A stretch of DNA of 27,120 nucleotides, taken from Sphingomonadaceae bacterium. Its GTDB lineage: Bacteria; Chloroflexota; UBA6077. The stretch is from NCBI GenBank assembly GCA_050261575.1, contig JBLNDL010000067.1, forward strand, positions 62,001-89,120, given 5' to 3'. Within the stretch, counting starts at the first letter, position 1, and the number at the start of each line of letters is the position of its first letter. Made by a program: the position numbers and the translations under genes. The notes under the pieces were generated by a model, which saw nothing but the letters and a program-made list of their open reading frames with translations, did no database searches and was not told the DNA's origin. This document shows, one piece after another, positions 3,641 through 26,452 of this stretch.

Positions 3641-6166
3641 ATGGAAGAGCACGACCTGCAGACCCTGGAACTGAACAAGGTGCTGGAGCGGCTGGCGGGC
3701 CACGCATCCTTCTCCGTCAGCCACGAGAAGGCCCTTGCCCTGCGTCCGGCCACGGAGATGGCCGAGGTGCTGAGGCGGCAGGCCGCGACCCACGAGGCAC
3801 GCCGCCTCCTGGACCTGAAGCCCAACTTCAGCATCGGCGGTGCCAGGGACATCCGCAGCCAGGTCCGGCGCGCCGCGGTGGGTGCGCTTCTGGCCCCCGA
3901 CGAGCTGCTGCTCGTCGTCTCTACCATCGCGAGCAGCAGAATCGTACGGGGAACGATGGCCAAGCTGGGAGACCAACTGCCGACCCTGGAGGAGATCACA
4001 CTCCCGATCGGCACGCACGACGGCCTGGAGCAGGAGATCCGTCGGGCCATCAACGACGCCGGCGAGGTGGTGGATTCCGCCAGTCCGGCGCTGGCCCACG
4101 TCCGCCTGGAGCTGCGGCGAGCCCACGAGCGGCTGATGTCTAAGCTCAACGAGATCGTCACCTCCCCAGCGTATCGACAGGCCTTGCAGGAACCGATCGT
4201 CACCCAGCGGGGCGGCCGCTACGTGGTGCCGGTGAAGGCGGAGTTCAAGGGGCAGGTGAAGGGCATCGTCCACGACCAGTCGGCCAGCGGCGCCACGGTC
4301 TTCATGGAGCCGTTGGTGGTAGTGGATCTGGCCAACCGATGGCGGCAGCTTCAGATCGACGAGGAGCACGAGATCGAGCGGATCCTCCGGCAGTTGAGCG
4401 GCCTGGTGGGTCGGGATGCCGAGGCTTTGGAGCGCACCCTGGAGGCCCTGGCGGAGGTCGACCTCTGCCTCGCCAAGGCGAAGCTGGCGGAGGCGATGCG
4501 GGCCGAGAGCCCCCGACTGGTGGATCTGCCGTCGCGAGGCGGGGACACGGGGACTCTGGGCCTCGGGGAGGCAGGGGCCACTCACCCAGTGAAGGTGCCC
4601 CCCGGCACGGTCACGCCTCTCCCAGGGGGAGAGGGAGGACACGGCCGCCCGGGGCCCAGGACCCCGGGCTCAGGGCTGGGCATCCGGAACCCGACGGAGC
4701 CGTGCGTCCGGCTGGTCAACGCCCGCCACCCCCTGCTCACAGGCCACGTAGTGCCGATCACAGTAGAGCTAGGGGGCGACTTCGACGTCCTGGTGATCAC
4801 CGGTCCCAACACGGGCGGGAAGACGGTGGCGCTGAAGACGGTGGGGCTTCTCTGCCTCATGGCCCAGTGCGGGCTGCAGATCCCGGCGGAGCAGACCTCT
4901 GTCGTCGGGGTGTTCCGCGCCGTCTACGCCGACATCGGGGACGAGCAAAGCATCGAGCAGAGCCTCTCCACCTTCTCCTCCCACGTCAGTCGAATCGTGG
5001 ACATCCTTGGCAAGGCGGACGAGCGCTCGCTGGTGCTGCTGGACGAGCTGGGGGCCGGCACCGATCCCCAGGAGGGTTCTGCGCTGGCGCGGTCGATCCT
5101 CTCTCACCTGCTGGCGAGGAGGATTCCCACCATCGCCACCACCCACTACTCGGAGCTGAAGAGCTTCGCCCACACCACGCCGCGGGTGGAGAACGCCTCC
5201 GTGGAGTTCGACCTCGAGACCCTCTCGCCCACCTACAAGCTGAGCATCGGCCTCCCAGGTCGCAGCAACGCCCTGGCCATCGCAACGCGATTGGGGATGG
5301 GGCAGGCGATCATCGAGGGGGCGAGGGAGCTACTGCAACCTGCCGACCTGGAGATCGAGGGGTTGCTGGCCCAACTCCAGACGGACCGAGAGGAGGCCCG
5401 AAACGCCCGGGCGGAGGTCGAGCGGCTGCGGGACCAGTTGCGGGCCCAGAGGGCCCGACTGAACGCCGAGCTGGACGACCTGCACGAGCGCAAGGCGCTG
5501 ATCCTGGAAAGGGCCAGGGAGCAGTCGGAGCAGGAGCTGGCGGCCCTGCGTCAGAAGATGCAGCAAGTGGTGCGTGAGCTGGAGAGAATCCGAGTCGAGC
5601 GGGATCATGCTGCTCCCATTGCCGACCTGGTGAAGCAGGTAGAGGACCTGCGCCCACTGCGAACCTCCGGCAGGCGGCGGCAGCGCCGCGAGCCGATGGA
5701 CACCCACGATCTGAAGGTCGGCCAGGCGGTGTACCTGGCGAGCCTGCAGACGACGGGTGTGGTCGCGTCCCTGCCAGACGACCGGGGCGAGGTGGAGGTG
5801 CAGGTGGGAAGCCTGCGAACCCGGGTAAAGACGCGGGACCTCTGGCGAACCGACCAGCCACAACCACTGGCGCCGCGCTCGCCGGACATCACCTATCGGT
5901 TCCATCAAGAGGCGCCGGATATCAGCATCCAGCTCGACCTTCGGGGTCGCCGGCCTCCGGAGGCCGAGGAGGAGTTGGACCGCTACCTCAACGACGCCTA
6001 CCTGGCCGGACTGAAGCAGGTCCGGATCGTCCACGGCAAGGGCACCGGTGCCCTGCGCCAGGCCGTCCGGCAGCAGCTCGCCTCCAGTCCCCTGGTGCGC
6101 CACTTCGAGTCGGCGGGCGACCGCGACGGCGGCGAGGGCGCCACCGTGGTCTCCCTCGCCAACTAG
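3641..6166 (+). CDS. mutS2: MutS2 endonuclease / ribosome-collision splitting factor
   Basis: HDQSASGATVFMEP, ARHPLL, Walker A GPNTGGKT, IGDEQSIEQSLSTFS, Walker B LLDELGAGTDP, coiled coil, KOW-like segment and Smr domain (LDLRG...IVHGKGTG). Confidence 0.97.
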   Translation: MEEHDLQTLELNKVLERLAGHASFSVSHEKALALRPATEMAEVLRRQAATHEARRLLDLKPNFSIGGARDIRSQVRRAAVGALLAPDELLLVVSTIASSRIVRGTMAKLGDQLPTLEEITLPIGTHDGLEQEIRRAINDAGEVVDSASPALAHVRLELRRAHERLMSKLNEIVTSPAYRQALQEPIVTQRGGRYVVPVKAEFKGQVKGIVHDQSASGATVFMEPLVVVDLANRWRQLQIDEEHEIERILRQLSGLVGRDAEALERTLEALAEVDLCLAKAKLAEAMRAESPRLVDLPSRGGDTGTLGLGEAGATHPVKVPPGTVTPLPGGEGGHGRPGPRTPGSGLGIRNPTEPCVRLVNARHPLLTGHVVPITVELGGDFDVLVITGPNTGGKTVALKTVGLLCLMAQCGLQIPAEQTSVVGVFRAVYADIGDEQSIEQSLSTFSSHVSRIVDILGKADERSLVLLDELGAGTDPQEGSALARSILSHLLARRIPTIATTHYSELKSFAHTTPRVENASVEFDLETLSPTYKLSIGLPGRSNALAIATRLGMGQAIIEGARELLQPADLEIEGLLAQLQTDREEARNARAEVERLRDQLRAQRARLNAELDDLHERKALILERAREQSEQELAALRQKMQQVVRELERIRVERDHAAPIADLVKQVEDLRPLRTSGRRRQRREPMDTHDLKVGQAVYLASLQTTGVVASLPDDRGEVEVQVGSLRTRVKTRDLWRTDQPQPLAPRSPDITYRFHQEAPDISIQLDLRGRRPPEAEEELDRYLNDAYLAGLKQVRIVHGKGTGALRQAVRQQLASSPLVRHFESAGDRDGGEGATVVSLAN
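4533..4692 (+). repeat. Composite repeat insertion in frame within mutS2
   Basis: Octamers GGGGACAC/GGGGACTC/TGGGCCTC/GGGGAGGC (4541-4572), palindrome CCTCTCCC-AGG-GGGAGAGG (4616-4634) and seven degenerate heptamers ending with GGAACCC (4644-4692). Confidence 0.65.
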
Positions 6167-6968: not shown

Positions 6969-8291
6969 CTACTTCTCGCTCCTGGGCTTCATGACGATCC
7001 GGATCGGAGTGCCCTCGAAACCCCAACGGGCACGAATCTCGTTCTCCAGGTATCGCACGTAGGAGAAGTGGGCCAGCTTCGGCTCGTTGACGAAGAACAC
7101 GAAGGTGGGAGGCTCCACCGCTGCCTGAGTCACGTACAGCAGCTTCAGCGACCGTCCCCGGACAGACGGCGGGGGATGGTGAACGAACGCCTCCTGCATG
7201 GCATCGTTTAGCGCTGAGGTGGGAACGCGCTTCCTTCGCTCCTCGGCTATGGCCAGGGCCATGTCCAGGATCTTGGTCACGCGCTGCTTGGTGAGGGCCG
7301 ACGTGAACACCAGTGGCACGTAATCCATGAACCGGAAGGCGCGGCGGATCGCCTGGGTGTACTCCGTGGTGGTGGTGGGCCCCTTCTTGACGAGATCCCA
7401 CTTGTTGGCCACCAGCATCATACCCTTGGCGGCATCCAGGACGTATCCGGCCACGTGGGCGTCTTGCGCCGTCACGCCCTCCTCGGCGTCGATCACCAGG
7501 GCGGCCACGTCGCTTCGCTCCACCGCCTGCACCGCGCGGATCACGCTGTACTTCTCGATCCCCCGATCGATCCGGCCGCGTCGACGGATTCCGGCCGTGT
7601 CCACCAGCAGGATCGACTTATCCCTGTACCGGATCAGGGTATCGATGGCATCCCGAGTCGTGCCCGGCACCGAGCTAACCATCACACGGCTCTCCCCCGC
7701 CAGGACGTTCACCAGGGAGGACTTGCCCACGTTCGGCCGACCCACGATGGCCAGCCGGACGTCCGCCGCCTCCTCCGCCGCCTCGGCCGTCTCCTTGCTG
7801 AACCCCCGGACTACCTCGTCCAGGAGGTCCCCAGTACCGTAGCCGTGGATCGAGGAGACGGCGATGGGCTCGCCCATTCCCAATTGGTAGAACTCCACCG
7901 CGTCCATGGTGCGCTGGGGGTTGTCGGCCTTGTTGGCGACCAGGATCACCGGCTTATCCGTCCGGCGGAGCAGATCGGCCACATCGTAGTCGACGGCGGT
8001 AGGCCCCTCCCTGGCGTCCACCACGAAGAGGATGGCGTCCGCTCGTTCGATCGCCTCCTCTGCCTGGCTGAGGATTCCCTGGTTCACCTCGTCCGGCTCC
8101 CCGAAGTCCAGTCCCCCCGTGTCGATCAGGGTGAAGGGGGCACCGTTCCACTCCACCGTCCCGTAGATCCGGTCGCGGGTTGTGCCGGGGGTCTCGTCGA
8201 CGATAGCCCTCCGCTCCCCCACCAGCCTGTTGAACAGGGTGGACTTGCCCACATTAGGTCGGCCAACGATGGCCACGATAGGCTTAGCCAT
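6969..8291 (-). CDS. der: Ribosome biogenesis GTPase Der (EngA)
   Basis: Two tandem GTPase domains (GRPNVGKS twice, GTTRD twice, DTGG/DTAG, NKAD/NKWD) and KH-like C-terminus PPTFVFF...YLEN..R..GFEGTPI. Confidence 0.98.
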   Translation of the reverse strand: MAKPIVAIVGRPNVGKSTLFNRLVGERRAIVDETPGTTRDRIYGTVEWNGAPFTLIDTGGLDFGEPDEVNQGILSQAEEAIERADAILFVVDAREGPTAVDYDVADLLRRTDKPVILVANKADNPQRTMDAVEFYQLGMGEPIAVSSIHGYGTGDLLDEVVRGFSKETAEAAEEAADVRLAIVGRPNVGKSSLVNVLAGESRVMVSSVPGTTRDAIDTLIRYRDKSILLVDTAGIRRRGRIDRGIEKYSVIRAVQAVERSDVAALVIDAEEGVTAQDAHVAGYVLDAAKGMMLVANKWDLVKKGPTTTTEYTQAIRRAFRFMDYVPLVFTSALTKQRVTKILDMALAIAEERRKRVPTSALNDAMQEAFVHHPPPSVRGRSLKLLYVTQAAVEPPTFVFFVNEPKLAHFSYVRYLENEIRARWGFEGTPIRIVMKPRSEK

Positions 8292-8450: not shown

Positions 8451-9734
8451 TCACTGAGGGCTCGAAGCGGCCGGCGGGGTCGGCGTTCCGGAAGGCAGGC
8501 CCGAGGGGCGAACCACACCGGTGGGCGGCGGAGCCGGTGTCGGAGTGGTCGCCGTTGCCAAGATCAAGCTCACCGTCTGCGGGTTGACAGACACCACCGT
8601 CAGGTCCGAGGGCGCAGAAGCCTTCGGACTCACCCTATGCACCCCCTCGCTCAACCCCGAGGCATCCAGGGTCACCATCACCGCATCCAGCTTCAGCCCC
8701 TGCATTATCGGTGCCGGTCCCTGGAGCGTCACCTCCACGAAGGAGGGCCTTTCCACCACCTGCAGCTTCGGGTCCAGGTTGACCACCTGTGGAGCCACCC
8801 TCACGACCTGGCTGGTCTGCAGCGTGGAAACTGACACCCGCACACGGGTCGTCTGCTGCTGAACCAGGGAGATGCCCTGGGGCACCACGATCTTGAGGTC
8901 CTGGACGACGCTGGCGGAGCCACCATCCACGTTGAGGGGCGCCGTCTCCAGGTAGTTGATGCCGGCCAGCACCTTCGGATCGCCCACCACGGTGACGGAG
9001 GAGGGCTCGGCGGTGATCGACTCGATCCAGTAGCCCGAGGCGACGTTTCCGGTGACTGCCGGCCGTATCCCCACCTGCTTGTAGCTCACCTGTTGGTCCA
9101 CGGGAACGCGCACATTCACCGTTTGGGGCGAAAGCTGTACGTTGCGCACCTCTGCGCCGGTAGAATCGACCGGAATGGGGTGGAACGCGGAGTCGATCTC
9201 CACGGTGACGCCCTCCAGACGCACCTCCACAGAGGCGGTTTGGACACTCTGGAGCAGGCTGGCCGGGCCCGCGGCCACCACCACCTCCGGCTCCACCTTG
9301 GGGGCGCGGTAGACGTAGCCGAAGGGCACGTTGCCCACCAGATTCACCTTGACTGGCACGGTGCGCTCCTGGATCTCCTCCAGTCTGACGGAAACGGTGG
9401 CCGGCACCACCTCCAGCACCCTGATCTGGGGATCCGAGACCTCCGGCACCACGGGCACGGCCTGGATGCCGGGTCCCTGTCTGGATAGATCCACGTAAGC
9501 CCGGAAGCTGGCGGTGCGGATCCCCGCCCACTTGTCCCTGGGGGCGCGGATCCTGAACCTGACCGGCTCCGGGTTGTTCATCACCACCAGCCCCGGCGGG
9601 ATCCTGGTGATCTCCACTGGGATCGCCATGTCCGGCGTGTCCGTTCTCTCGGGGTTCTGATCGTTGACCACCAGCACCCAAAGACTCACGGAGAGCAGGA
9701 GGGCCAGGGCAGCCAGCCCGAAGTTGATCCTCAT
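8451..9734 (-). CDS. cdaR: CdaR/YbbR-domain regulator of diadenylate cyclase
   Basis: N-terminal TM ending SLWVLV, then repeated YbbR-like units (P..V.V.GP/GD motifs) and a Pro/Thr-rich tail; starts 5 nt after the cdaA stop. Confidence 0.9.
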   Translation of the reverse strand: MRINFGLAALALLLSVSLWVLVVNDQNPERTDTPDMAIPVEITRIPPGLVVMNNPEPVRFRIRAPRDKWAGIRTASFRAYVDLSRQGPGIQAVPVVPEVSDPQIRVLEVVPATVSVRLEEIQERTVPVKVNLVGNVPFGYVYRAPKVEPEVVVAAGPASLLQSVQTASVEVRLEGVTVEIDSAFHPIPVDSTGAEVRNVQLSPQTVNVRVPVDQQVSYKQVGIRPAVTGNVASGYWIESITAEPSSVTVVGDPKVLAGINYLETAPLNVDGGSASVVQDLKIVVPQGISLVQQQTTRVRVSVSTLQTSQVVRVAPQVVNLDPKLQVVERPSFVEVTLQGPAPIMQGLKLDAVMVTLDASGLSEGVHRVSPKASAPSDLTVVSVNPQTVSLILATATTPTPAPPPTGVVRPSGLPSGTPTPPAASSPQ

Positions 9735-9739
9735 CGATC

Positions 9740-10603
9740 CTACTTAGCCGTCTCTTCTCGTCGTTGTATCCTGGCCGGTATCCGCTCCATCAACCACGCT
9801 GGCAGCCAGGTGGGAGTGCTCTGGGGGCGATAGAGGGCAGGAAGGACCTTCTTCAGCTTCGCCTCGTCCAGGTTTCGCACTATCCTACCGTTGTTGGCCA
9901 GGGAGATCATCCCCGTCTCCTCGGAGACGATGATCGATATCGCGTCGGTGCGCTCGGTGATCCCCACCCCTGCCCGATGCCGGGTCCCCAGGTGCTGGTC
10001 CGAGTGGAGCATCTCGGTCAGCGGCAGAAGACACGCCGCCGCCACCACACGGTCCCCCCGGATTATCGTCGCCCCATCGTGGAAGGGGGAGTTGGGGAAG
10101 AAGATGGTCATCAGGAAGTCCACGGAAACCAGGCCGTCGATCTCGACGCCGGTATCCACGTACTCGCCGAGCCCGGTCTCCCGCTCCAGGACGATCAATG
10201 CACCCCATTTCCGGTCGGACATCCGCCTGCAGGCCACGGCGATCTGTTCCATGGCCCGCACCCACTCGTTGTTGGGCGCGCCCCGTGCCAGGAAGCGGCT
10301 GGTCCGGCCCAGTCGCTCCAGCGCCCGACGTAGCTCCGGTTGGAATAGAATGGGTATCGACACCAACATGGCGGGAATGGAGTTCCTGAGCACCCAGTTC
10401 AGGACCACCAGATCCAGGACGCTCCCGAGGATGGCGGCCAGGAGGATCAAGGTGATCATGCCGCGGACCAGTGCCACTGCCGTGGTCCCCTGGATCAGCA
10501 CCAGGATCCAATAGACGATGGCCGCCACGATCAGAATGTCTATGGCCGCGCGCACGTCGAGACGCGACAGCGTCGACAGCACCATCTCCACAAAGCTCGC
10601 CAT
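9740..10603 (-). CDS. cdaA: Membrane diadenylate cyclase CdaA (DacA)
   Basis: Three TM helices, ILFQPELRRALERLG, catalytic motifs PFHDGA and LGTRHRA, VSEETG. Confidence 0.96.
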   Translation of the reverse strand: MASFVEMVLSTLSRLDVRAAIDILIVAAIVYWILVLIQGTTAVALVRGMITLILLAAILGSVLDLVVLNWVLRNSIPAMLVSIPILFQPELRRALERLGRTSRFLARGAPNNEWVRAMEQIAVACRRMSDRKWGALIVLERETGLGEYVDTGVEIDGLVSVDFLMTIFFPNSPFHDGATIIRGDRVVAAACLLPLTEMLHSDQHLGTRHRAGVGITERTDAISIIVSEETGMISLANNGRIVRNLDEAKLKKVLPALYRPQSTPTWLPAWLMERIPARIQRREETAK

Positions 10604-12912: not shown

Positions 12913-13836
12913 CTACGGACGTCCAAACAGCCAGGAGAGCAGACCCTTCTGGGCGTGGAGGCGGTTCTCAGCCTGGTCGAACACCACCGACTGCGGCCCA
13001 TCTATCACCTCGTCGGTGATCTCCTCGCCCCGGTGGGCCGGCAGGTCGTGCATCACTATGGCGTCGGGCTTCGCCAGCCTCAGAAGCTCCTCGTCGATTC
13101 GGTATCCGGCGAAGGCCGCCTTTCGAACGGCGTTCTCAGCCTCCTGCCCCATGCTGGTCCACACGTCGGTGTAGAGGATGTCGGCTCCAGCCGCGGCCTC
13201 CACGGGGCTGCGCAGGAGGGTGAAGGTCGCCTCGGTCGCCTCCCTATCGGCCTGAGAGAGTTGAAGCATGGTGGACTTCGGCTCGTAGCCCTCGGGGCAG
13301 GCCACCCGAAGGTGAATACCCACCTTGGCGGTGCCGAGGATGAGGGAGTGGAGAACGTTGTTGCCGTCTCCGATGTAGGCCATGGTCAGGCCCGCCAAGC
13401 GATTCTTCTTCTCTCGAACGGTCAACAGGTCGGCGAGGCACTGGCACGGGTGGCTCAAGTCGGACAGGGCGTTGATCACGGGCACAGTGGCGAAACGGGC
13501 CAGCAACTCCTGATCCGAGTGGCGGTTGGTGCGAGCCACGATACAGTCCACGTAGCGGCTCAACACCCTGGCGACATCGGCAACGCTCTCCCGCTCCCCC
13601 AGACCCACCTCGGCGGGCGAGAGGTAGAGGGAGTGTCCACCCAGATGGCGGACCCCTTGCTCGAAAGAGACCCTGGTGCGAAGCGACGGCTTCTGGAAGA
13701 TGAGAGCCACGGTCTTCCCAGCCAGTTCGGTTCGCCAGCGCCCCTGCTTCGTCTCTTGTTTGAGGACCGAAGCCCTCTCCAGGACTCGCGAGAGTTCGTC
13801 CCGCGATAGGTCGGCTATGCTGAGGATGCTGCGCAT
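12913..13836 (-). CDS. argF: Ornithine carbamoyltransferase
   Basis: FQKPSLRTRVSFE, HPCQ, GDGNNV, YTDVWTSMGQE, MHDLPAHRGEE, QAENRLH; AGGGGGA SD upstream of ATG 13836 (307 aa). Confidence 0.95.
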   Translation of the reverse strand: MRSILSIADLSRDELSRVLERASVLKQETKQGRWRTELAGKTVALIFQKPSLRTRVSFEQGVRHLGGHSLYLSPAEVGLGERESVADVARVLSRYVDCIVARTNRHSDQELLARFATVPVINALSDLSHPCQCLADLLTVREKKNRLAGLTMAYIGDGNNVLHSLILGTAKVGIHLRVACPEGYEPKSTMLQLSQADREATEATFTLLRSPVEAAAGADILYTDVWTSMGQEAENAVRKAAFAGYRIDEELLRLAKPDAIVMHDLPAHRGEEITDEVIDGPQSVVFDQAENRLHAQKGLLSWLFGRP

Positions 13837-14022
13837 GTGGTCCCCCTGATCAGTCCGGGAGATGTGTTTGGCCGGAGGGCGCAGATTGGGTCGCGATGGG
13901 GAATCGCGCGGAGACGCGACCCGGGGAGTCGCCGTCGGGAGGTTGCTGTGCTCAATCGCGCCCGTGCCGGAGTGCCGGCCGTGCAGCAACTCCCGTGGCC
14001 GCTGCCGACCCAGCCCGGGGCC

Positions 14023-14031
14023 AGTATACCA
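14023..14031 (-). promoter_or_regulatory. Extended -10 element for argF
   Basis: Minus strand TGGTATACT (TGn-TATACT), about 190 nt upstream of argF. Confidence 0.5.
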
Positions 14032-14113
14032 TAAGGGTAGCAATGGCATGGCTCCTGCTTTGCAGCCCATCCGGCTCGGCGTGCCGGCCGAAATGACGGG
14101 GAAGGAGGCCATC

Positions 14114-14275
14114 ATGCTCAGCACGATCCTGTGGGTGATCATCGCGTTGCTCGTCATCTTCTGGCTCTTCGGCACGGTGGTGGGCAATCTCGGCGACATC
14201 GTCTGGATAGCGCTAGTGATCGCCGCGATCCTGCTGGTGTACAACCTGCTCACCAGGGGAAGAGCAGAAGTCTGA
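14114..14275 (+). CDS. Small membrane protein (lmo0937/DUF5670-like)
   Basis: 53 aa MLSTILWVIIALLVIFWLFG..G.LGDIVWIALVIA.ILLVYNLL.GR; strong AAGGAGG SD. Confidence 0.85.
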   Translation: MLSTILWVIIALLVIFWLFGTVVGNLGDIVWIALVIAAILLVYNLLTRGRAEV

Positions 14276-14288
14276 CCTGCGCGAACTC

Positions 14289-14313
14289 AGGGCAGGGCAG
14301 GGCGCCCTGCCCT
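14289..14313. terminator. REP-like hairpin between convergent genes
   Basis: AGGGCAGGGC-AGGGC-GCCCTGCCCT, 10-bp perfect stem. Confidence 0.55.
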
Positions 14314-14340
14314 CTGCTCGACGGCAAGCAGCGCCGAGGA

Positions 14341-15087
14341 TCAGACGGGTGCGACGAGGAGCAGAGAGCCAGCCATCACCGGAGTCACGATCATCGCACC
14401 CCTCACCAGCCAGCGAGGCGCTCGCTTGGTGAACTTGGCTCCCACGAAGGTGCCCGTGGAGAGCCCAAGGATCACGCTCGCCAGCAGCGCAGGGCTCACC
14501 TGCCCTCCCTGGGCGAAACGTATCGCCCCCGTCAGGCTCATCAGGGAGAGGGAGAACATCGTGGTTCCGACGACCCTCCGCAACTCCATCCCTTTCAGGA
14601 GCAGCAACCCCACCTGTATCCAGGGGGCGGTGCCGATGCTCAGGAAACCCGATCCGAAACCACACAGGAAGCCCACCACGGCCGATCCCGGTAGCTCGCG
14701 CCAGAATCTCTCCGCCAGGGGGGCGGCCTTGGCCGAGGACTCCCGCGCGGGGGCCCTCCTCGTTCTCAAGTAGACGATGGCGGCGTTGAGGATAAGGGTG
14801 AGTCCGGCGAAGGTCTTCAACTGGAAGGCGTCGGTTGCCAGGGCGAGCCCGCCACCCAGGTAGGCTCCCAGCACACCCACCAGGCCGACCTGCACGCCCG
14901 CCACCGGGTCGACGTTCCCCTCTCGGAGGTGGCTCCAGCCCCCGGCGGCGGCGCTGACGAACATAGCCCCGAGCGCGGTGCCGAAGGACAGATGGACGGG
15001 GAACTGGAAGATAATGATCAGGAGCGCCGCCACGAAACCGGCTCCACCGAGGCCAACGAAGCCCAGCAACAGCCCCAGGATAAGCAT
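14341..15087 (-). CDS. Sulfite exporter TauE/SafE family membrane protein
   Basis: Gly-rich TM repeat architecture (GFVGLGGAG..GTALG..SHLREGNVD; GFLSIG....VVGTT..G.FVGAK). The start may be a CTG at 15111. Confidence 0.88.
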   Translation of the reverse strand: MLILGLLLGFVGLGGAGFVAALLIIIFQFPVHLSFGTALGAMFVSAAAGGWSHLREGNVDPVAGVQVGLVGVLGAYLGGGLALATDAFQLKTFAGLTLILNAAIVYLRTRRAPARESSAKAAPLAERFWRELPGSAVVGFLCGFGSGFLSIGTAPWIQVGLLLLKGMELRRVVGTTMFSLSLMSLTGAIRFAQGGQVSPALLASVILGLSTGTFVGAKFTKRAPRWLVRGAMIVTPVMAGSLLLVAPV

Positions 15088-16068: not shown

Positions 16069-16345
16069 GGCCTTCCTCCCTCCTCCAACGATTGGGCGGC
16101 CGGGGGCCATTCCACCGGACCTGAGCAGGTATCTCTGGTTCATGCCAGCTTCTCTGGCGGGAAACGTGTACTCATCTAGAGATTCCTGCTCGGTCCGGCC
16201 ACCCCCTGATCGTGGATGACCCCGCGAGCCGAGCCACTCGGCGCTGCACACCGCATGCCGGAGGATTCGACCTGGAACACGGCGCAGCCCGCCGCGAGCG
16301 GCTTCGGGCCACCAACTCTCACTCCGGAGTCGATCGACCCCACTG

Positions 16346-16354
16346 TGGTAGAAT
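16346..16354 (+). promoter_or_regulatory. Extended -10 element for the EamA gene
   Basis: TGGTAGAAT about 55 nt upstream of ATG 16410. Confidence 0.5.
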
Positions 16355-16409
16355 TGCCCCTGCCCCACACGGCACCACACCATCTGTTCCCTGCAGAAGA
16401 GTTGCGAGA

Positions 16410-17294
16410 ATGATAGGCGAACTGCTCGCGCTGACATCGGCCTTCACGTGGGCCCTGGTCAGCGTCCTCCTCAGAGTCCTCCAGACGCGCGCCAACGCCC
16501 TGTCGCTGAACGCCTTCCGCTCCCTGGTGGCGGCGATCGTCACTGCCGGGGTGGTGGTCGCCACGGGGCGACTGGAGGCCGTGGCCCATTTCTCCCCGTC
16601 CACCGTCTTCATCCTGGTAGCGTCGGTGCTAGTGGGGATGGGAATCGGCGACACACTCTACTTCTACAGCCTGCGGCTGGTGGGTGTCGTCCGAGGGCTG
16701 ATCCTATCCAACGCCTACCCGGTCTTCGCCGCCATCATGGCCGCCGCGTTCCTCGGGGAGCGAATGAGCGTCGGCCTGCTGGTGGGAACGATGCTGGTCG
16801 TGTTCGGCGTCGCGCTCGTGCTGGTCCCGAGCCGCGGGCTCCTCCTGAAGTCCACGGTGGAACCAGGGAAGAACGTGAGACTGGGGGTGGCGCTCGCGCT
16901 GGCTGCGGCTCTCTTCTGGGCGTGCGCGACAGTGCTGGTGCGAGTGGGGGCACAGGAGACCGACGGAGTGGCAGCCACTTCCCTTCGACTGATCGCCGCC
17001 TCGGTCGCCCTGATGGTGGCGTCCGGCCTCAGCAGGTCGGGGCTGCAGACCCCAAAGTACCGAGGCCGGCAACTGCTCGGGATCCTGGCCGCAGGGGTGG
17101 TCACCGCCGCCACCTCCGTCACGTTCCTGCTGGCGGTCCAGTACACTGGTGCCGCCAAGACGGCGACCCTTACATCCACAGCGCCACTCTTCGGTGCGCC
17201 GATGTCGCTCCTGATGGGAGAGCGGCTGACCTGGCAGACCTTGGTGGGCTGCGTGGTCTCCGTCGTCGGGATCTGGCTGGTGATGGCTGGGTAA
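16410..17294 (+). CDS. EamA/DMT family transporter
   Basis: Two EamA repeats, about 10 TM (GELLAL.SA..WA; GDTLYF; P.FAA..A..FLGER; PLFG......GER). Confidence 0.92.
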   Translation: MIGELLALTSAFTWALVSVLLRVLQTRANALSLNAFRSLVAAIVTAGVVVATGRLEAVAHFSPSTVFILVASVLVGMGIGDTLYFYSLRLVGVVRGLILSNAYPVFAAIMAAAFLGERMSVGLLVGTMLVVFGVALVLVPSRGLLLKSTVEPGKNVRLGVALALAAALFWACATVLVRVGAQETDGVAATSLRLIAASVALMVASGLSRSGLQTPKYRGRQLLGILAAGVVTAATSVTFLLAVQYTGAAKTATLTSTAPLFGAPMSLLMGERLTWQTLVGCVVSVVGIWLVMAG

Positions 17295-17367
17295 TCCATG
17301 CTATCCTTGCGCGCGGTTCAGGCGAGAAGCTGACGGTTCCATTCCACGATGAATGGAGATTGACTAC

Positions 17368-18504
17368 ATGCGAGAGAGCATAGTCCTCAGTGACGGCACC
17401 AGCTTCGAAGGCACCAGGTTCGGCTCGCCGACCACTGTGACCGGGGAGGTCGTCCTCTACACGGGGGTGGTGGGCTGGCAGGAGGTGCTTACCGACCCCT
17501 GCTACGCTGGGAAGATCGTGGTTTTCACCTACCCCCACGTGGGCAACTACGGGGTGAACGACGAAGACGTCGAGTCCTCCGACGTGACGGTAAGAGGGAT
17601 AGTGGTTCGAGACCTCGCACGCTTCCACTCCAACTTCAGGGCCAAGGGCAGCTTTCGCGCCTGGGTGGAGGAGAGAGGCATCGCGGGATTGGACGGCGTC
17701 GATACTCGGGCTATCATGGTTCACGCCCGGAACCAAGGGATCGGAACGGGCGCCATCGCGGACAGCCCCGAAGCCGGCCTCCGCGCCCTGCGTGAGACCA
17801 CATCCCCCTTCGAGTGGAACCTGGTGGCCAAGGTCCAGGGGATCTGCCGATGGCCCGCCGCCTCAGGACTGAGGACTGAGGACTCAGAACCGAGCCTTCA
17901 AAGCCCACCTCAATCCTCAGCCCTCGGCCCTCAGTCCTCAGCCTTGCGCCTCGGCGTGCTGGACCTGGGCGGCAAGTACTCCCTCTACCGGCAGATGGCC
18001 GAGCTGGGGTGCGCTCTCCGCTACTTCCCGTGGAACAGCAGCGCCGAGTTGATCGCCGCCTCGGGGGTCGACGGTCTGCTGCTGCCGCCTGGCCCCGGCG
18101 ACCCGAACCGGCTGGGCTCCATTGTCGAGCAGGTCCACCGCCTGGTTGGCAAGCTCCCCATCCTGGGGATCGGCCTGGGCTTCCAGGTGTTGGCCCTGGC
18201 TCTGGGAGGCCGGGTGGTCCGGCTGAAGGCCGGCCGCCACGGGGTGAACTACCCGGTCCGTTCCACGCGGGGCGAGCCGTCGATGATCGTCGCCTGCCAC
18301 CACTCCTTCGCCGTCGACGGCGCATCGCTGCCGCCGGGCGTGGACATCACCTACGTCCACCTGAACGAAGGAACGGCCATGGGGCTCGAGGCCCGAGGGC
18401 TGCGAGCGTGGGGATACCAGTTTCACCCCGGGTGGGACGGGGACAACCGACCCTCTCCTCTGCTGGCGCGCTTCGTCGAGACCTTGCGGACGGCGTCCGC
18501 GTAG
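17368..18504 (+). CDS. carA: Carbamoyl-phosphate synthase small subunit homolog with degenerate glutaminase active site
   Basis: LSDGTSFEG, GEVV, QEVLTDPCY.G..V.FTYPHVGNYG, GVDTRA, GPGDP, but GIGLGFQ instead of GICLGHQ and HPG instead of HPE. GGAG SD favours ATG 17368 over 17353. Confidence 0.93.
   Translation: MRESIVLSDGTSFEGTRFGSPTTVTGEVVLYTGVVGWQEVLTDPCYAGKIVVFTYPHVGNYGVNDEDVESSDVTVRGIVVRDLARFHSNFRAKGSFRAWVEERGIAGLDGVDTRAIMVHARNQGIGTGAIADSPEAGLRALRETTSPFEWNLVAKVQGICRWPAASGLRTEDSEPSLQSPPQSSALGPQSSALRLGVLDLGGKYSLYRQMAELGCALRYFPWNSSAELIAASGVDGLLLPPGPGDPNRLGSIVEQVHRLVGKLPILGIGLGFQVLALALGGRVVRLKAGRHGVNYPVRSTRGEPSMIVACHHSFAVDGASLPPGVDITYVHLNEGTAMGLEARGLRAWGYQFHPGWDGDNRPSPLLARFVETLRTASA
17865..17943. 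repeat. Heptamer-based palindromic element in frame in the carA interdomain linker
   Basis: AGGACTG AGGACTG AGGACTC AGAACCG (17865-17892), spacer, then CTCAATC CTCAGCC CTCGGCC CTCAGTC CTCAGCC (17909-17943); the arms are reverse complements. Confidence 0.85.
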
Positions 18505-18616: not shown

Positions 18617-18656
18617 TCGGAGACAGGGTCCGGCGCCACACGTTCTGGAGGTGACC

Positions 18657-21600
18657 ATGCCAAAGCGAACAGATATCCGCAAGGTGCTGATGATCGGCTC
18701 CGGACCCATCGTGGTCGGCCAGGCATGTGAGTTCGATTACTCCGGCAGCCAGGCATGCAAGGCGTTGCGGGAGGAAGGCTACGAGGTGGTCTTGGTCAAC
18801 TCCAATCCAGCCACCATCATGACCGACACGGTGATGGCGGACCGCACCTATATCGAGCCGATCACTGCGGAGGCGATAGAGAAGATCATCGCACGGGAGC
18901 GGCCCGACGCCATCATCCCCACCCTCGGGGGCCAGACGGGGCTGAACGTGGCGGTGTTCCTCGCCCGCCAGGGGGTGTACGAGAGGTACGGGGTCGAGGT
19001 GCTGGGCGCCGACCCCGAGGCGATCACCCGCGCCGAGGACAGAGACGAGTTCAAGAAGGCGATGCAGGAGATTGGCGTCAAGACCCCAGCCAGCGGCATC
19101 GCCACCTCGGTGGAGGAGGGGATGAGGATAGGCCTCTCCATCGGCTTCCCGCTGATCCTGCGCCCGGCCTTCACCCTCGGGGGCACCGGCGGCGCCACCG
19201 TCTACAACCGCGAGGAGCTGGAGTCCTACCTGCACAAGGCGCTGGACATCTCCCCGGTGCACCAAGTGCTGGTGGAGCAATCGGTCATCGGCTGGAAGGA
19301 GATCGAGTTCGAGGTGATGCGCGACTGCGTGGACAACGTGATCGCGATCACCTCCATGGAGAACGTCGATCCCATGGGGGTGCACACCGGAGACTCCGTC
19401 GTGGTGGCCCCATCCCAGACCCTCTCGGCGCCGGAGTACGCCGAGTACGTGCGCCTCAGCAAGAAGATCATCCGCAAGATCGGGATCACAGGTGGCGGGG
19501 CCAACATCCAGTTCGCTGGAAACCCCGAGACGGGTGAGATCGTGATCATCGAGGTGAACCCACGTCTCTCCCGCTCCTCGGCGCTGGCCAGCAAGGCTAC
19601 CGGCTTCCCGATAGCCCGGATCGCCACCAAGCTGGCCGTAGGATACACCCTGGAGGAGATCCTCAACTCCGTCACCGGCTGCTCGCGGAGCTACTTCGAG
19701 CCGACGGTAGACTACTGCGTCTTCAAGATCAGCCGCTTCACCTTCGAGAAGTTCCCGACCGCCGAGCGGGTCATCAACACCTCCATGAAGTCGGTGGGCG
19801 AGGCCATGGCCATCGGGCGCACCTTCAAGGAGGCGCTACAGAAGGGGATCCGCTCCCTGGAGATCGGCCGCTTCGGGCTGGGCGACGACGGGAAGGACCC
19901 CCCGCCAGCCCAGCGACGAGACCTAGATCTGATCCGGCAGAAGCTGCGGATCCCGAACGACGAGCGCTTCTTCTATATCCGCTACGCCTACGAAGCTGGC
20001 TTGACCACGGAGGAGATCCACTCCCTCTCCCACATCGACCCTTGGTTCCTGGAGAACATCCGAGAGTTGGGAGAGCGGGCGAAACAGATCCACCGTTACG
20101 CCGGCCACCCGGAGGAGCTTCCCCCGGAGGTGCTGCGGAAGGCCAAGGCCGACGGCTTCTCTGACCGGCAGCTAGCCCACCTGCTCAAGGTCCGGGAGGC
20201 GGAGATCTACGACCTCCGCCATCGGCTGGGGATACGCCCGGTCTTCAAGCTGGTGGACACCTGCGCCGGAGAGCTGGACGCCGCCAAGCCCTACTTCTAC
20301 TCCACCTACGAGCAGCACGACGAGAACCGGGTAACCGACAACCCGAAGAAGGTGATCGTCCTCTCGGGCGGACCCAACCGGATCGGACAGGGGATCGAGT
20401 TCGACTACTGCTGCTCCCACGCCGTCTTCGCCCTGAAGGAGATGGGCTACGAGGCGATCATCATCAACTCCAATCCGGAGACCGTCTCGACCGACTACGA
20501 CACGAGCGACAAGCTGTACTTCGAGCCGCTGACTCGCGAGGACGTGTTGGAGATCGTCCAGGCTGAGAAGCCGGAGGGGGTCATCGTCCAATTGGGAGGG
20601 CAGACCCCCCTGAATCTGGCCGTCCCGCTGGAGCAGGCCGGAGTGCGGATCCTGGGGACCTCGCCCGACGCCATCGACCGTGCCGAGGACCGGGAGCGGT
20701 TCAAGCAACTGGTGGAGAAGCTGGGGCTAACCCAGCCGGCCAATGGCACGGCCTTCTCCTTCGAGGGCGCGCGGAAGGTGGCTGCGGAGATCGGCTATCC
20801 CGTGGTGGTGCGCCCCAGCTACGTTCTTGGCGGCCGGGCCATGGAGATCGTCTACGACGACGAGGAGCTGCGGGAATTCATGGGGAAGGCGGCCGAGGCA
20901 TCGCCCGAGCGCCCGATCCTGATCGACAAGTTCCTGGAAGACGCCATCGAGGTAGACGTGGACTGTGTCGCCGACGGCACCGACGTGGTGCTGGGGGGCA
21001 TCATGGAGCACATCGAGATGGCGGGCGTCCACTCGGGCGACTCCGCCTGCTGCCTCCCACCCTTCTCCCTGACCGAGGCGCAGATGGAGCAGATCCGCGC
21101 CCAGACAGTGGCCATGGCGCTCGAGCTGGGAGTGAAGGGGCTGATGAACGTCCAGTACGCCATCAAGAACAATGTCCTGTACGTCCTCGAGGTGAACCCC
21201 CGAGCCTCCCGCACGGTGCCGTACGTCTCCAAGGTCACCGGCGTACCCCTGGCGAAGGTTGCGACCCAGGTGATGTGTGGCCGCACCCTGAAGGAGATCG
21301 GCTTCACCAAGGAAGTAACCTTCGACCACGTCGGCGTCAAGGAGGCGGTGTTCCCCTTCTCCCGGTTCCCGGGCGTCGACGCGGTGCTCGGGCCGGAGAT
21401 GAAGTCCACCGGCGAGGTCATGGGAATCGACGCGGACTTCGGCGTCGCCTACGCGAAGAGCCAGATGGCGGCCGGCAGCGCCTTGCCCACCAGCGGCGCG
21501 GTGCTGTTCTCCCTCAAGAACATGGACAAGCGCCCAGCGCTCTTCCTGGTGAAGCGCATGGCCGATCTGGGGTTCAAGATCTTGGCCACCGAGGGCACCG

Positions 21601-21917
21601 CCCACTTCCTCCGCGGCCAGGGGATCGAGGTGGAGATCGCCCACAAGGTCTCCAGCGGGATACGTCCCAACATCCTCGATCAGATCAGAAACCATCAGAT
21701 CCAGTTGATCGTAAACACCCCCTCCGGCAAGCACCCGCGCCAGGACGAGGTGGCAATCCGCTCCACCGCGGTGCTGTACGGGGTGCCGCTGATCACCACC
21801 TTGCAGGGGGCGTCGGCAGCGGTGGTGGGGATCGAGCAACTGGTCAAGAAGGGGCTTGCCGTCAAGACCATCCAGGAGTACCACTCCGAGGTTCGAGGTC
21901 GGCCGAGTCTGGTGTGA
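18657..21917 (+). CDS. carB: Carbamoyl-phosphate synthase large subunit
   Basis: MPKRTDI, GQACEFDYSG, HTGDS, EVNPRLSRSSALASKATG, GQGIEFDY, RPSYVLGG, HSGDS, EVNPRASRTVP, MKSTGEVMG and MGS-like C-terminus; GGAGGTG SD; 1086 aa. Confidence 0.98.
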   Translation: MPKRTDIRKVLMIGSGPIVVGQACEFDYSGSQACKALREEGYEVVLVNSNPATIMTDTVMADRTYIEPITAEAIEKIIARERPDAIIPTLGGQTGLNVAVFLARQGVYERYGVEVLGADPEAITRAEDRDEFKKAMQEIGVKTPASGIATSVEEGMRIGLSIGFPLILRPAFTLGGTGGATVYNREELESYLHKALDISPVHQVLVEQSVIGWKEIEFEVMRDCVDNVIAITSMENVDPMGVHTGDSVVVAPSQTLSAPEYAEYVRLSKKIIRKIGITGGGANIQFAGNPETGEIVIIEVNPRLSRSSALASKATGFPIARIATKLAVGYTLEEILNSVTGCSRSYFEPTVDYCVFKISRFTFEKFPTAERVINTSMKSVGEAMAIGRTFKEALQKGIRSLEIGRFGLGDDGKDPPPAQRRDLDLIRQKLRIPNDERFFYIRYAYEAGLTTEEIHSLSHIDPWFLENIRELGERAKQIHRYAGHPEELPPEVLRKAKADGFSDRQLAHLLKVREAEIYDLRHRLGIRPVFKLVDTCAGELDAAKPYFYSTYEQHDENRVTDNPKKVIVLSGGPNRIGQGIEFDYCCSHAVFALKEMGYEAIIINSNPETVSTDYDTSDKLYFEPLTREDVLEIVQAEKPEGVIVQLGGQTPLNLAVPLEQAGVRILGTSPDAIDRAEDRERFKQLVEKLGLTQPANGTAFSFEGARKVAAEIGYPVVVRPSYVLGGRAMEIVYDDEELREFMGKAAEASPERPILIDKFLEDAIEVDVDCVADGTDVVLGGIMEHIEMAGVHSGDSACCLPPFSLTEAQMEQIRAQTVAMALELGVKGLMNVQYAIKNNVLYVLEVNPRASRTVPYVSKVTGVPLAKVATQVMCGRTLKEIGFTKEVTFDHVGVKEAVFPFSRFPGVDAVLGPEMKSTGEVMGIDADFGVAYAKSQMAAGSALPTSGAVLFSLKNMDKRPALFLVKRMADLGFKILATEGTAHFLRGQGIEVEIAHKVSSGIRPNILDQIRNHQIQLIVNTPSGKHPRQDEVAIRSTAVLYGVPLITTLQGASAAVVGIEQLVKKGLAVKTIQEYHSEVRGRPSLV

Positions 21918-24026: not shown

Positions 24027-26369
24027 CTAACGCTCGGTCAGCAGCTCGTACCCATCCCGTCCGATGGTCATCTCCACGGCACCGTGCCGATCGGTGCGCA
24101 GCAGCAGGCTGTTCCCCAGCAGCGCCACCGTCGACTCAGCCGGGTGGCCGAAGCGGTTGTTCGACTGGACCGACACGACCGCCGCGCGGGGCGAGATCGT
24201 CTGCAGGAAGCCCTCGTCCAGGGAGCCCACTGCCCCATGGCGAGGCAGTCGCAGAAGCTCCATCCGCCCCGGCGCCCCCCGAGCGATCTCGGCCTGGACT
24301 CCCCTGGAGAGGTCCCCCGGCAGCAGGACGCTGATCCCTCCGGCAGCCACCAGCTTGATCGCCATCGCAGGCTCCTCCAGATACCCCGCTGGCGCCCACA
24401 ACACCTCCAACCAGGTTTCGCCGTCCAGGGGTATCCGCTGTCCGGTGGCTGCCCGCACCACCGGCACTCGCCGCTCCCGCAACAGCTCCGTCCACGCCAG
24501 CCCCGCGCCCCTCTCCGGTGGCGATCCCGGCTGCAGGACGAACCCGACAGGATACCTGCGCACCACCTCCAGCAGCCCGGCCAAGCGGCCCTCGCCGTAG
24601 TCGGTCACCACCACCCCGTCCAGTGCCCGATCCAGGAACCCCAGCCGCTTTCCCAGGGCGTCGGCAACGCCAACCGGGCTGGGTCCGCCATCCACCAGGA
24701 GCTTGTGGCCCGCCGCGCTACGGATCAGGGTAGCGTCGCCGTGGCCCACGTCCAGGAAGTAGAGGTGGGTCTTCCCGTCCGGGCGATCGGACAGCGCCAC
24801 CAGCCCGAGGCCGAGCAAGGCAGCGGCGGCGCCGGCCAGGGTCCAACCGGGCAGCCGCCCCGCCAGGGAGAGCGCGGCCTGCCGGACCGAACGCATCTCC
24901 GCGGACGGCCAGAAGCCCACCGCGACCACCAGCAGGTAGTAGGCCACGACACTCCAGAAGCCGAGTGCGCCCACGGGGAGGACGGCCCCGGGGAGTCGGG
25001 CCGTCCAGCCGATCACCTCCACCAGGTAGGTAAGGTATAGCCAGGCGGGGAAGGCCAGCAGGTGACCGGCGGGCTCGAATAGGGCCCCGACCCCGACTGC
25101 GAGGGCACCCGCGATCATCACCCCCGGCAGCATGGGGGTGACGAGGAGGTTCGCGAGGGGAGACACCACCGAGAGGTTGTTGAAGCTGCCCACCAGCACC
25201 GGCATGGTCGCGATTTGAGCCGCCAGGGTGACCGAGAGGGAGGAGGCGAGCCATCCGGGAAGGCGGCCAAGAGCTCCTCGCAGCACCGGCTCCAGCAGCA
25301 CCAGCCCACCAGTAGCCAGAAACGAGAGTTGAAAGCCCAGATCGAACAGCAGGTTCGGGTCGGCGCCGGCCATGAACGCCGCCGAGAGCAGGAGAATCGA
25401 CAGGGGATCCGTGCCGCGCCCCACCAGGATCGCCGAGAGGCCCAGCGTAGCCATGATAGCAGCCCGGAGGGCAGAAGGCGGCAGACCTGTCAAGGCGGAG
25501 TAGAACCACACCGTGGCGATCGCAAGCAGGGTGGCTCTCTGTCGAGCAAGGAGGCGAAGCGAGGCCGCTTGAGCCAGCCCCGCCACCACCGTGACGTTGA
25601 AGCCGGAGACCGCGACGATGTGGCTGGTGCTGGTGGCGTTGAGGGCATCGCGAAACTCGGGGGGCATGCTCGCGCGAGCGCCCACCAGGATGCCCGCGAG
25701 GAGGGAGGCCTGTGGCTCGGGTAGAAGCCGTACGCAGAGCGCCTCCAGCCTGTCCCGCAGGCCGTCGATGGACCGCCGCAAGTCGGGTCCCGAGCCAAGA
25801 CGATCCCTCAGCCGGATGCCGGGGTACTCGAGGATCGTGTGGATGCCCTGGCGCGAGAGCTGCTCGGCCCAGTAGCCCGACCCCTGCTCCAGCGGGCGAA
25901 GCTGTCCCCACACTGCTAACGGGTCCCCGTAGCCCCACTCTCGGTACCGGTCGGTGCGGACCAACACCCGCCCCCGGAGCCGCTCCCGCGCGCCCCGCGC
26001 CCACAGATCCTCCACATCCAGCACCATCAGGACGTGGGAGTCCCGCACCTCGGGCCGTCCCGCCACGGTGCCGTAGATCACCACCGGCCCCGTTCGCTCC
26101 AGCAGAGGGTCGGAACCCGTCGCCATGCTCGATGCGCGCGCAACGCCGAGGACGCCCGCCCCCACCGCGAGCGCCGTGACCACGAGCCTGCGATCCCCTC
26201 GGGCAAGGATTGCAGCCGCGCCGGATAGAAGGGAGAGGGTAAGCAGCGCGAATGTCGGGGCTAGAGGGGAAAAGGCTGAAGAGTCTTCCTCTGCCGGCCC
26301 TCCGGCGCTCCCCACGAGACCCAGATAGAGGCCCACCAGCCAGCCAAGGGAGAGGAAGATCGTGGTCAT
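24027..26369 (-). CDS. comEC: DNA-uptake channel ComEC/Rec2 with degenerate metallo-beta-lactamase domain
   Basis: OB-like N-domain, competence domain (LLAGILVG, SHIVAVSGFNV, PSALRAAIM, DLGFQLSFLAT, SPLANLL) and C-terminal MBL fold (FLDVGHGDA, LVDGGP, FGHP, RTD..GAV). Confidence 0.93.
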   Translation of the reverse strand: MTTIFLSLGWLVGLYLGLVGSAGGPAEEDSSAFSPLAPTFALLTLSLLSGAAAILARGDRRLVVTALAVGAGVLGVARASSMATGSDPLLERTGPVVIYGTVAGRPEVRDSHVLMVLDVEDLWARGARERLRGRVLVRTDRYREWGYGDPLAVWGQLRPLEQGSGYWAEQLSRQGIHTILEYPGIRLRDRLGSGPDLRRSIDGLRDRLEALCVRLLPEPQASLLAGILVGARASMPPEFRDALNATSTSHIVAVSGFNVTVVAGLAQAASLRLLARQRATLLAIATVWFYSALTGLPPSALRAAIMATLGLSAILVGRGTDPLSILLLSAAFMAGADPNLLFDLGFQLSFLATGGLVLLEPVLRGALGRLPGWLASSLSVTLAAQIATMPVLVGSFNNLSVVSPLANLLVTPMLPGVMIAGALAVGVGALFEPAGHLLAFPAWLYLTYLVEVIGWTARLPGAVLPVGALGFWSVVAYYLLVVAVGFWPSAEMRSVRQAALSLAGRLPGWTLAGAAAALLGLGLVALSDRPDGKTHLYFLDVGHGDATLIRSAAGHKLLVDGGPSPVGVADALGKRLGFLDRALDGVVVTDYGEGRLAGLLEVVRRYPVGFVLQPGSPPERGAGLAWTELLRERRVPVVRAATGQRIPLDGETWLEVLWAPAGYLEEPAMAIKLVAAGGISVLLPGDLSRGVQAEIARGAPGRMELLRLPRHGAVGSLDEGFLQTISPRAAVVSVQSNNRFGHPAESTVALLGNSLLLRTDRHGAVEMTIGRDGYELLTER

Positions 26370-26452
26370 GGGCGAGCCGTCCAGCCTTCGAGAGAGGTGC
26401 ACACGGCACCGAGCGGAGACGGGGAAAGGCCGGGCAGGTCACGAACCGTCGG

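Follow-up and report, generated by a model that had tools for sequence, protein, structure and literature searches.

A bacterial carbamoyl phosphate synthetase pair with a disabled glutaminase subunit and an altered tunnel interface as a candidate ammonia-dependent enzyme

The DNA analysed here, referred to as the window, is a stretch of 27,120 nucleotides (nt) of the soil Chloroflexota assembly GCA_050261575.1 (contig JBLNDL010000067.1, positions 62,001 to 89,120), which carries adjoining genes for the small (carA) and large (carB) subunits of a variant carbamoyl phosphate synthetase (CPS). The small subunit lacks the residues of glutamine hydrolysis, and the large subunit keeps its catalytic residues while being altered along the ammonia tunnel. 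We consider it moderately likely that this variant pair is an ammonia-dependent CPS in which CarA has become structural and the tunnel has been rebuilt. Bacterial CPS is described in textbooks as glutamine-dependent, and the ammonia-specific CPS is regarded as an animal invention. What appears to be new is a putative bacterial CPS of the ammonia type, arrived at by a route other than that of human CPS1. In the literature searched, no description was found of a bacterial clade whose CarA has lost the nucleophile, or of a link between such a clade and a guanosine monophosphate (GMP) synthase gene (guaA) devoid of its glutamine amidotransferase (GATase) part.

Results

The variant small subunit

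The variant carA gene (17353..18504, + strand) encodes the Pfam domains CPSase_sm_chain and GATase, the latter a class-I amidotransferase domain. Relative to E. coli CarA, whose numbering is used here, GICLGHQ is replaced by GIGLGFQ, QNHGF by CHHSF and GHPEASPGPHD by FHPGWDGDNRP. Glycine thus occupies the positions of the nucleophile Cys269 (codon 18172-18174, +) and of Glu355 (codon 18430-18432, +), Asn311 is His, Ser47 is Cys, His353 is retained (codon 18424-18426, +), and the 355-362 loop has been swapped out, the new segment at 355-365 reading GWDGDNRPSP (18430-18459, +). The sequence-only reading of this DNA had drawn attention to the GDNRP loop and to the loss of Glu355 and Cys269, and these observations are fully borne out. 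As the Cys269 nucleophile, Glu355 and Asn311 are all missing, the variant CarA is firmly predicted to be unable to hydrolyse glutamine. In the 30 full-length pairs of the clade described below, position 269 is Gly in 26, Ser in three and Ala in one; alpha-G293 is Val in 29 of the 30, the window included, and alpha-G359 is never Gly, being Ser in the window.

The N-terminal domain that binds CarB is intact (PF00988, E = 2e-44, residues 10-135), and the residue evidence argues strongly that CarA has been retained as an intact subunit under selection. Within the clade it diverges 1.7-1.9 times as fast as its CarB, the ratio being 1.0-1.1 in canonical pairs, which indicates a constraint that is relaxed yet persistent. 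With the family model TIGR01368, the window CarA scores 295 bits, under the cut-off of 307.35, and the canonical CarA of the same genome scores 460. Clade members such as P0013 and P0028 exceed the cut-off (353-357 bits), which is why small subunits of the clade are called 'glutamine-hydrolyzing' in public records, a label that their residues contradict. The linker joining the two CarA domains contains a near-repeat, PPQSSALGPQSSAL, at 17902-17946, and its length varies greatly among close Chloroflexota relatives.

The variant large subunit

The variant carB gene (18657..21917, +) follows carA after 152 nt as a separate gene, with a GGAGG ribosome-binding site, read from the sequence, at 18647..18651 (+), 5 nt ahead of the ATG at 18657. 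It encodes a full-length large subunit of 1086 amino acids, according to the translation of its open reading frame (ORF), phmmer and the family models NF003671 (1613 bits, cut-off 599) and TIGR01369 (1456 bits). The protein is 55% identical to E. coli CarB over its full length and collinear with it (1bxr_A; phmmer 1269.7 bits, residues 1-1079 against 1-1072). The alignment is gapless up to about residue 342, so that the E. coli numbering is valid for the changed segment (19350..19454, +), in which His243 is the CAC codon at 19383-19385. At the place where E. coli has QTLTDKEYQIMRNAS, the window CarB has QTLSAPEYAEYVRLS. The substitutions are C232T, at the gate residue (codon 19350-19352), D258A (19428-19430), Q262A (19440-19442), R265V (19449-19451) and N266R (19452-19454), together with I234M and the replacement of GGRTPASFEP by GCSRSYFEP, with one residue deleted. 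Translation and alignment therefore uphold both the numbering and the substitutions given by the sequence-only reading, its SRSYFEP change included. The listed N266R is also present, but it is uninformative, as are K259P and T257S, because these positions vary in canonical CarBs too.

The assertion that the catalytic residues of CarB are intact holds for every residue checked, in the window and in 30/30 clade members: R129, R169, E215, H243, N283, Q285, E299, N301, R303 and R306 in the first ATP-grasp half, and R715, E761, H788, Q829, E841, N843, R845 and R848 in the second. The residues listed for the ATP sites and the carbamate tunnel, after work on E. coli, are those of E. coli in the 30 pairs, save for Ile20 (Val in 2/30, the window included) and Ala23 (Gly in 1/30). 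The order of domains is complete, including the oligomerisation and MGS-like allosteric domains, as judged from the collinearity with E. coli CarB 1-1072 and from the Pfam domains of one clade member (L287). The site for uridine or inosine monophosphate (UMP/IMP; S948, K954, T974, T977, N1015, D1025) and the ornithine site (E783, D791) are also kept. These residues point strongly to a fully competent synthetase. At the gate, A251 and A314 are kept, and C232 is replaced by Thr and I234 by Met in 30/30 members. The trio C232-A251-A314 is described as a narrow gate midway in the ammonia tunnel and its rate-limiting point (PMC8674909; PMC6241538).

Changes in the two subunits occur together

From all the loci fetched, 178 CarA/CarB neighbour pairs on the same strand, -50 to 6000 nt apart, were collected. 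After requiring at least 300 amino acids for CarA and at least 270 for CarB, and removing identical sequences, 133 unique pairs remained. The initial contig scan, made with patterns of the shared N-terminal domain, gave Cys269 CarAs alone, and its loci were reused as the control set. CarB positions 232/258/262/265 read C-D-Q-R in 71 of the 77 pairs with a Cys269 CarA; in five others the only deviation is D to N or Q to H, and the last (L020) is an artefact, namely a misaligned CarB fragment truncated where its contig stops, which is canonical when read separately. Beside a CarA without Cys269, 52 of 56 CarBs have none of C232, D258, Q262 and R265, with no real case among the 77 controls; as the scan behind the non-Cys loci searched for the non-Cys motif itself, these counts show an association and not a frequency. 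The remaining non-Cys pairs comprise three mixed ones (L082, C-N-Q-R; L219 and L220, C-H-K-R) and one fully canonical one (L213). It follows that loss of CarB Q262 and R265 does co-occur with a non-Cys CarA when paired alignments are compared, as the sequence-only reading had suggested checking, and that the same CarB changes are not common beside a normal CarA, the case that it had named as refuting.

The changes are few. In 84 unique full-length pairs (52 Cys, 32 non-Cys), grouped by CarA residue 269 alone, a position was called discriminating if at least 90% of the Cys group shared one residue that was present in at most 10% of the non-Cys group. Only 11 of 1073 CarB positions qualify (T31S, C232T, D258A, Q262x, R265V/T, V304L, K321R, A324T, P360A, T540R, R615K), with eight in CarA (269, 285, 288, 355, 359, 360, 362, 365). 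On this alignment evidence, the discriminating changes clearly appear to concentrate on the gate and on the segments 258-265 and 355-365.

One old clade, rare among genomes

The nearest relatives of the window CarA form eight protein clusters at 67-100% identity, from Chloroflexota where named, and the next is at 46%. Cys is missing at position 269 in 111 of the 120 best matches (110 Gly, one Ala), most of which have N311H and a PDExGRPS loop in common. The non-Cys motif was found at 80 metagenome loci; 56 of these include the start of CarB, which has T232 and the changed 258-265 segment in 53. These 53 CarBs are 75-95% identical to the first 420 residues of the window CarB, compared with 55-66% for canonical CarBs.

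In a tree of the 84 full-length CarBs, 30 of the 32 rows paired with a non-Cys CarA, including the window, form a single clade (SH-like support 100; all trees were made with FastTree and have local support only). Two canonical Omnitrophota rows adjoin it (99), the canonical CarB of the window's own genome groups with other Chloroflexota, and L213 and L219 lie among the canonical rows. Trees built from CarB 620-1073 and from the CarA N-domain, which contain no discriminating positions, place the same 30 rows on one side of a branch; of these two trees, only that of the CarA N-domain gives the branch marked support (98). From these trees, the window pair is best assigned to one old, co-inherited clade in which the non-Cys CarA and the changed CarB travel together. 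The earlier proposal of a co-evolved CPS subtype is thus sustained as regards the joint inheritance of changes in both subunits, but these go back to essentially one origin.

Carriers are few: two of 301 Chloroflexota genomes, the window's own (G000) and one of the same family (G056), and eight of 401 Planctomycetota genomes. The 299 Chloroflexota negatives include four unpublished genomes (G038, G272, G173 and G219). All ten carriers also have a Cys269 CarA with a C-D-Q-R CarB.

A second synthetase beside a canonical one

The window's genome (3.72 Mb, 103 contigs) has its other carA-carB pair on contig C20, a pair that the sequence-only reading had overlooked. Its CarA is canonical (GICLGHQ, SQNHEF, YHPEGSPGPQD), and its CarB carries the canonical segment QTLSDKEYQMLRSAS. 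The pair in the window is a second CPS beside this canonical one, an extra copy that the genome has acquired. The canonical pair is preceded by two ORFs, of 351 and 449 amino acids; the shorter matches carbamoyltransferase, which makes a pyrB-pyrC-carA-carB cluster likely on C20. The canonical CarB (L009:4960-8394) has an insertion of about 55 low-complexity residues in its second half, just before VIVQFGGQT, which divides its match into two pieces.

Base composition shows no sign of a recent transfer, the guanine-plus-cytosine (GC) content of the variant pair (0.63-0.67) lying within the range of the window (0.63-0.70). A gene of the EamA transporter family (16212..17294, +; Pfam EamA) lies directly upstream of the variant carA, and the order EamA-carA-carB is common to the window and to G056 (locus L292), the only related genome examined. 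Given the matching GC and this shared order, the pair is resident and no stray of the binning. An Rfam scan of the whole window at the gathering threshold gave no matches, and hence no known riboswitch ahead of carA.

The only ornithine carbamoyltransferase (OTCase) gene of the genome, argF (12913..13839, -, in an ORF that runs to 14253; TIGR00658, 398 bits against a cut-off of 281), lies 3.1 kb upstream of the variant carA on the opposite strand; a tblastn search of the genome for OTCase returned just this gene and pyrB on C20. An arginine-specific role for the pair, to which only this distant, oppositely oriented gene points, is a weak possibility.

A GMP synthase without its amidotransferase adjoins most other members

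Elsewhere in the clade, the neighbourhood is more telling. A gene for a GMP synthase without GATase (here guaA-C) lies directly upstream of the variant carA in 61 of the 77 non-Cys loci with at least 300 nt of upstream sequence, on the same strand in 60 of them and at a distance of 27-426 nt. It encodes only the ATP-pyrophosphatase and dimerisation part (TIGR00884, profile positions 2-309 of 310), and no gene for a GATase partner was detected next to it. It is absent from the Chloroflexota subclade (window, L154, G056) and from the Ser269 subgroup, and the window's genome has one guaA, which is full-length. As the variant pair stands in an operon with a GMP synthase that has lost its glutaminase in most other carriers, its general role looks like the making of nucleotide precursors straight from ammonia.

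The Planctomycetota genome G484 has both arrangements, a canonical set of carA, full-length guaA with its GATase domain, and carB, and a variant set of guaA-C, carA and carB. This canonical order is that of L294 (G484:C40), G594:C84, G467:C157 and G666:C229. From this canonical order, the variant set looks like a rearranged duplicate of the whole cluster. A clade member with Ser269 and Tyr353 (L230:5949-15311) stands in a cluster of pyrC, a TIGR00375-family gene, the variant carA and carB, pyrK and pyrD, and in that organism the CPS without glutaminase may be the pyrimidine enzyme.

Discussion

The loss of the nucleophile implies that glutamine is not used by the variant pair, which probably takes up free ammonia directly, as judged from its residues. 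We hypothesise that free ammonia is the nitrogen substrate, and that the former path out of the inactive glutaminase site would be closed by Val at alpha-G293 and by Ser, Asn or His at alpha-G359. The wall of the interface would have been rebuilt by the swap of the alpha 355-362 loop and by the change of beta D258, Q262 and R265 to small or apolar residues, forming either a new entry or a new seal. The tunnel gate could have been retuned by beta C232T and I234M, and these changes together may let ammonia from the solvent reach the carboxyphosphate site with usable affinity. That the tunnel is specifically opened is a proposition in which we place much less confidence than in ammonia dependence as a whole, for an opened interface and a differently sealed one are indistinguishable here. 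In E. coli CPS, beta-R265 is reported by Kim and Raushel (2004) to contact alpha-P360 and alpha-H361 at the subunit interface, and the corresponding residues of the window pair may likewise lie close together.

The comparison with known enzymes is instructive. E. coli CarAB (PDB 1BXR/1JDB) likewise consists of two separate subunits, with a collinear CarB and the same allosteric and ornithine sites; it is glutamine-dependent, whereas the window CarA is without Cys269 and Glu355, its alpha 360-362 loop is replaced, and its CarB has C232T, I234M, D258A, Q262A and R265V. Blockage of the E. coli tunnel by alpha-G359F/Y was reportedly obtained by Huang and Raushel in 2000, and its perforation by alpha-P360A, alpha-H361A and beta-R265A is said to have been achieved by Kim and Raushel in 2004. 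On these reports, the clade has altered in nature the same positions (alpha 359-362, beta 265) that were targeted in the blocking and perforating experiments; in contrast to the engineered mutants, the natural enzyme carries a changed gate as well and lacks any glutaminase. Two CPS, one pyrimidine- and one arginine-specific, are present in the Bacillus/Lactobacillus type, where both small subunits are active glutaminases. The variant resembles that type in the two carAB pairs per genome, one of them in a pyr cluster, and differs from it in a CarA without glutaminase residues.

Vertebrate CPS I is ammonia-specific. In human CPS1 (PDB 5DOU), the nucleophile position is Ser294, and Gln318, at the position of E. 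coli Gly293, blocks the old tunnel (PMC4655335). The clade shares the loss of the nucleophile, with Ser269 in one of its subgroups, and a larger residue at the Gly293 position, Val in the window CarA. CPS1 is, however, a single fused chain that depends on N-acetylglutamate and keeps the gate Cys648, whereas the window enzyme has two separate subunits and an allosteric domain like that of E. coli. The authors of the CPS1 paper propose an alternative entry path for external ammonia, possibly also present in E. coli CPS, and state that E. coli CPS whose tunnel has been blocked or perforated loses the use of glutamine and stays active with ammonia (PMC4655335).

Several observations weigh against the proposal of an ammonia enzyme with a rebuilt tunnel. 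The association between the two subunits rests on essentially one ancient origin and is unreplicated; within the clade, co-variation of beta-265 (V or T) with alpha-359 (S or other) amounts to just three independent pairs on supported branches, too few for a test to have power. Human CPS1 keeps the equivalents of C232, Q262 and R265, with Asn at D258. Independent lineages with Cys269 changed to Gly (L213, L082 and G087) keep a canonical CarB, and the CarB of L219/L220 is only partly changed, with C232 and R265 retained. Because these independent lineages live with a canonical or mostly canonical CarB, the CarB changes are not required for life without a glutaminase. Many residues of the glutamine pocket are conserved in the variant CarA (G241, L270, Q273, H312, F314 and mostly H353), and the pocket may still bind something. 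The window locus has no guaA-C neighbour, and its EamA gene and distant argF say little about function. Finally, the stretch occurs in DNA runs of soil metagenomes only, and no RNA run is listed for it.

These independent lineages can be described further. G087 (loci L097, L242, L272) is a 1.7-Mb Chloroflexota genome, 98% complete, whose single CarA (G087:C10:28982-32153) has MMGIGLGQN, with Cys269 changed to Gly, and is otherwise canonical (N311, H353, E355, PGPLD loop); the adjoining CarB is canonical at C232, D258, Q262 and R265. This CarA may reflect a recent loss or an error, or the genome may have a sole CPS without glutaminase. In the metagenomic L219/L220, carA (9287-10348) is followed by carB from 10380 and directly afterwards by an OTCase gene (13637-14545); the CarA has GIGLGFQ, SQSHSY and HPQ, and the CarB has H258, A261 and K262 with C232 and R265 kept.

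The foremost alternative, to which we assign a low though appreciable probability, is that the CarB changes are compensatory repacking only. The glutaminase would have died, the alpha 355-362 loop would have drifted or been replaced, and beta D258, Q262 and R265, having lost their partners, would have been swapped to fit the new loop; the tunnel would be unopened, ammonia would take the alternative way in suggested for both CPS1 and E. coli CPS, and the enzyme would still be ammonia-dependent. Such repacking is consistent with CPS1 and the independent lineages, which manage without these CarB changes, and with the new loop, which has a conserved charged motif of its own, PDExGRPS, more suggestive of a refitted surface than of a hole; the alternative entry is itself proposed in the CPS1 paper, where it is said that it may exist in the E. 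coli enzyme (PMC4655335). However, the sites of C232T and I234M are at the internal gate or adjacent to it and not at the interface, and the fixation of both changes in every full-length clade member points to a retuning of the ammonia passage itself. In addition, the CarB changes are held very tightly while CarA drifts fast.

It is much less probable that CarB is fed ammonia by another glutaminase, unlinked or differently linked, with CarA as an adaptor. A candidate for this role, an N-terminal nucleophile (Ntn), class-II amidotransferase domain of the purF/glmS-like N-terminal type, stands as an ORF of its own downstream of the variant carB at L183:13655-14671 and L191:6147-6992. Such an ORF was found in just two of about 90 loci searched and is not at the locus of the window's genome, and at most loci the neighbour is instead a synthetase that is without a glutaminase of its own. 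We deem least probable of all a changed nucleophile, such as another amine, or a changed direction, for example a reaction that makes ATP from carbamoyl phosphate and lets ammonia out through the rebuilt wall. The side of nitrogen entry is indeed what changed, as a general fact, and an EamA-type transporter adjoins the pair in the window and in G056. Nevertheless, the pair retains the two phosphorylation sites, the carbamate tunnel and the sites for UMP/IMP and for ornithine of a biosynthetic CPS, and Thr at 232 is no smaller than Cys. The amine substrate entertained by the sequence-only reading accordingly finds no support, since C232T does not enlarge the gate and the phosphorylation sites and carbamate tunnel are unchanged.

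Direct use of ammonia by a CPS with a structural CarA thus remains our preferred explanation. A broader possibility, which we advance as speculative and rather improbable, is that a GMP synthetase lacking its glutaminase, an inactive CarA and a CarB with a rebuilt tunnel form a portable 'glutamine-free' module, in which the rebuilt wall would be a natural solvent port for ammonia and the glutamine pocket of CarA, dead though conserved, would serve as a sensor. Were this so, GMP and carbamoyl phosphate would be made straight from ammonia when glutamine is scarce or costly, which could be of use in ammonium-rich, energy-poor settings or where Cys-dependent amidotransferases are poisoned by glutamine analogues; the wall formed by the alpha-loop and beta-258-265 would then be the natural counterpart of the engineered perforated tunnel. 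The ATP-pyrophosphatase unit of two-subunit GMP synthetases can use ammonia, according to a preprint (bioRxiv 10.1101/2022.02.27.481963). The neighbour gene of the clade resembles that unit in encoding the ATP-pyrophosphatase and dimerisation part alone, and differs in that no GATase partner lies beside it and in that G484 also has a full-length guaA.

At the evolutionary level, a bacterial clade appears to have given up its glutaminase with the synthetase still under very tight selection. This can be considered a natural experiment in the conversion of an amidotransferase to direct ammonia use, by a route in the large subunit unlike that of CPS1, and the operon partner guaA-C is a hint that glutamine independence may extend to a broader branch of nucleotide synthesis. 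Other genes identified in the window are ordinary ones: MutS2 (3641-6166), EngA (6969-8291), a cdaA (DAC domain) and ybbR pair (8451-10603, -) and ComEC (24027-26402).

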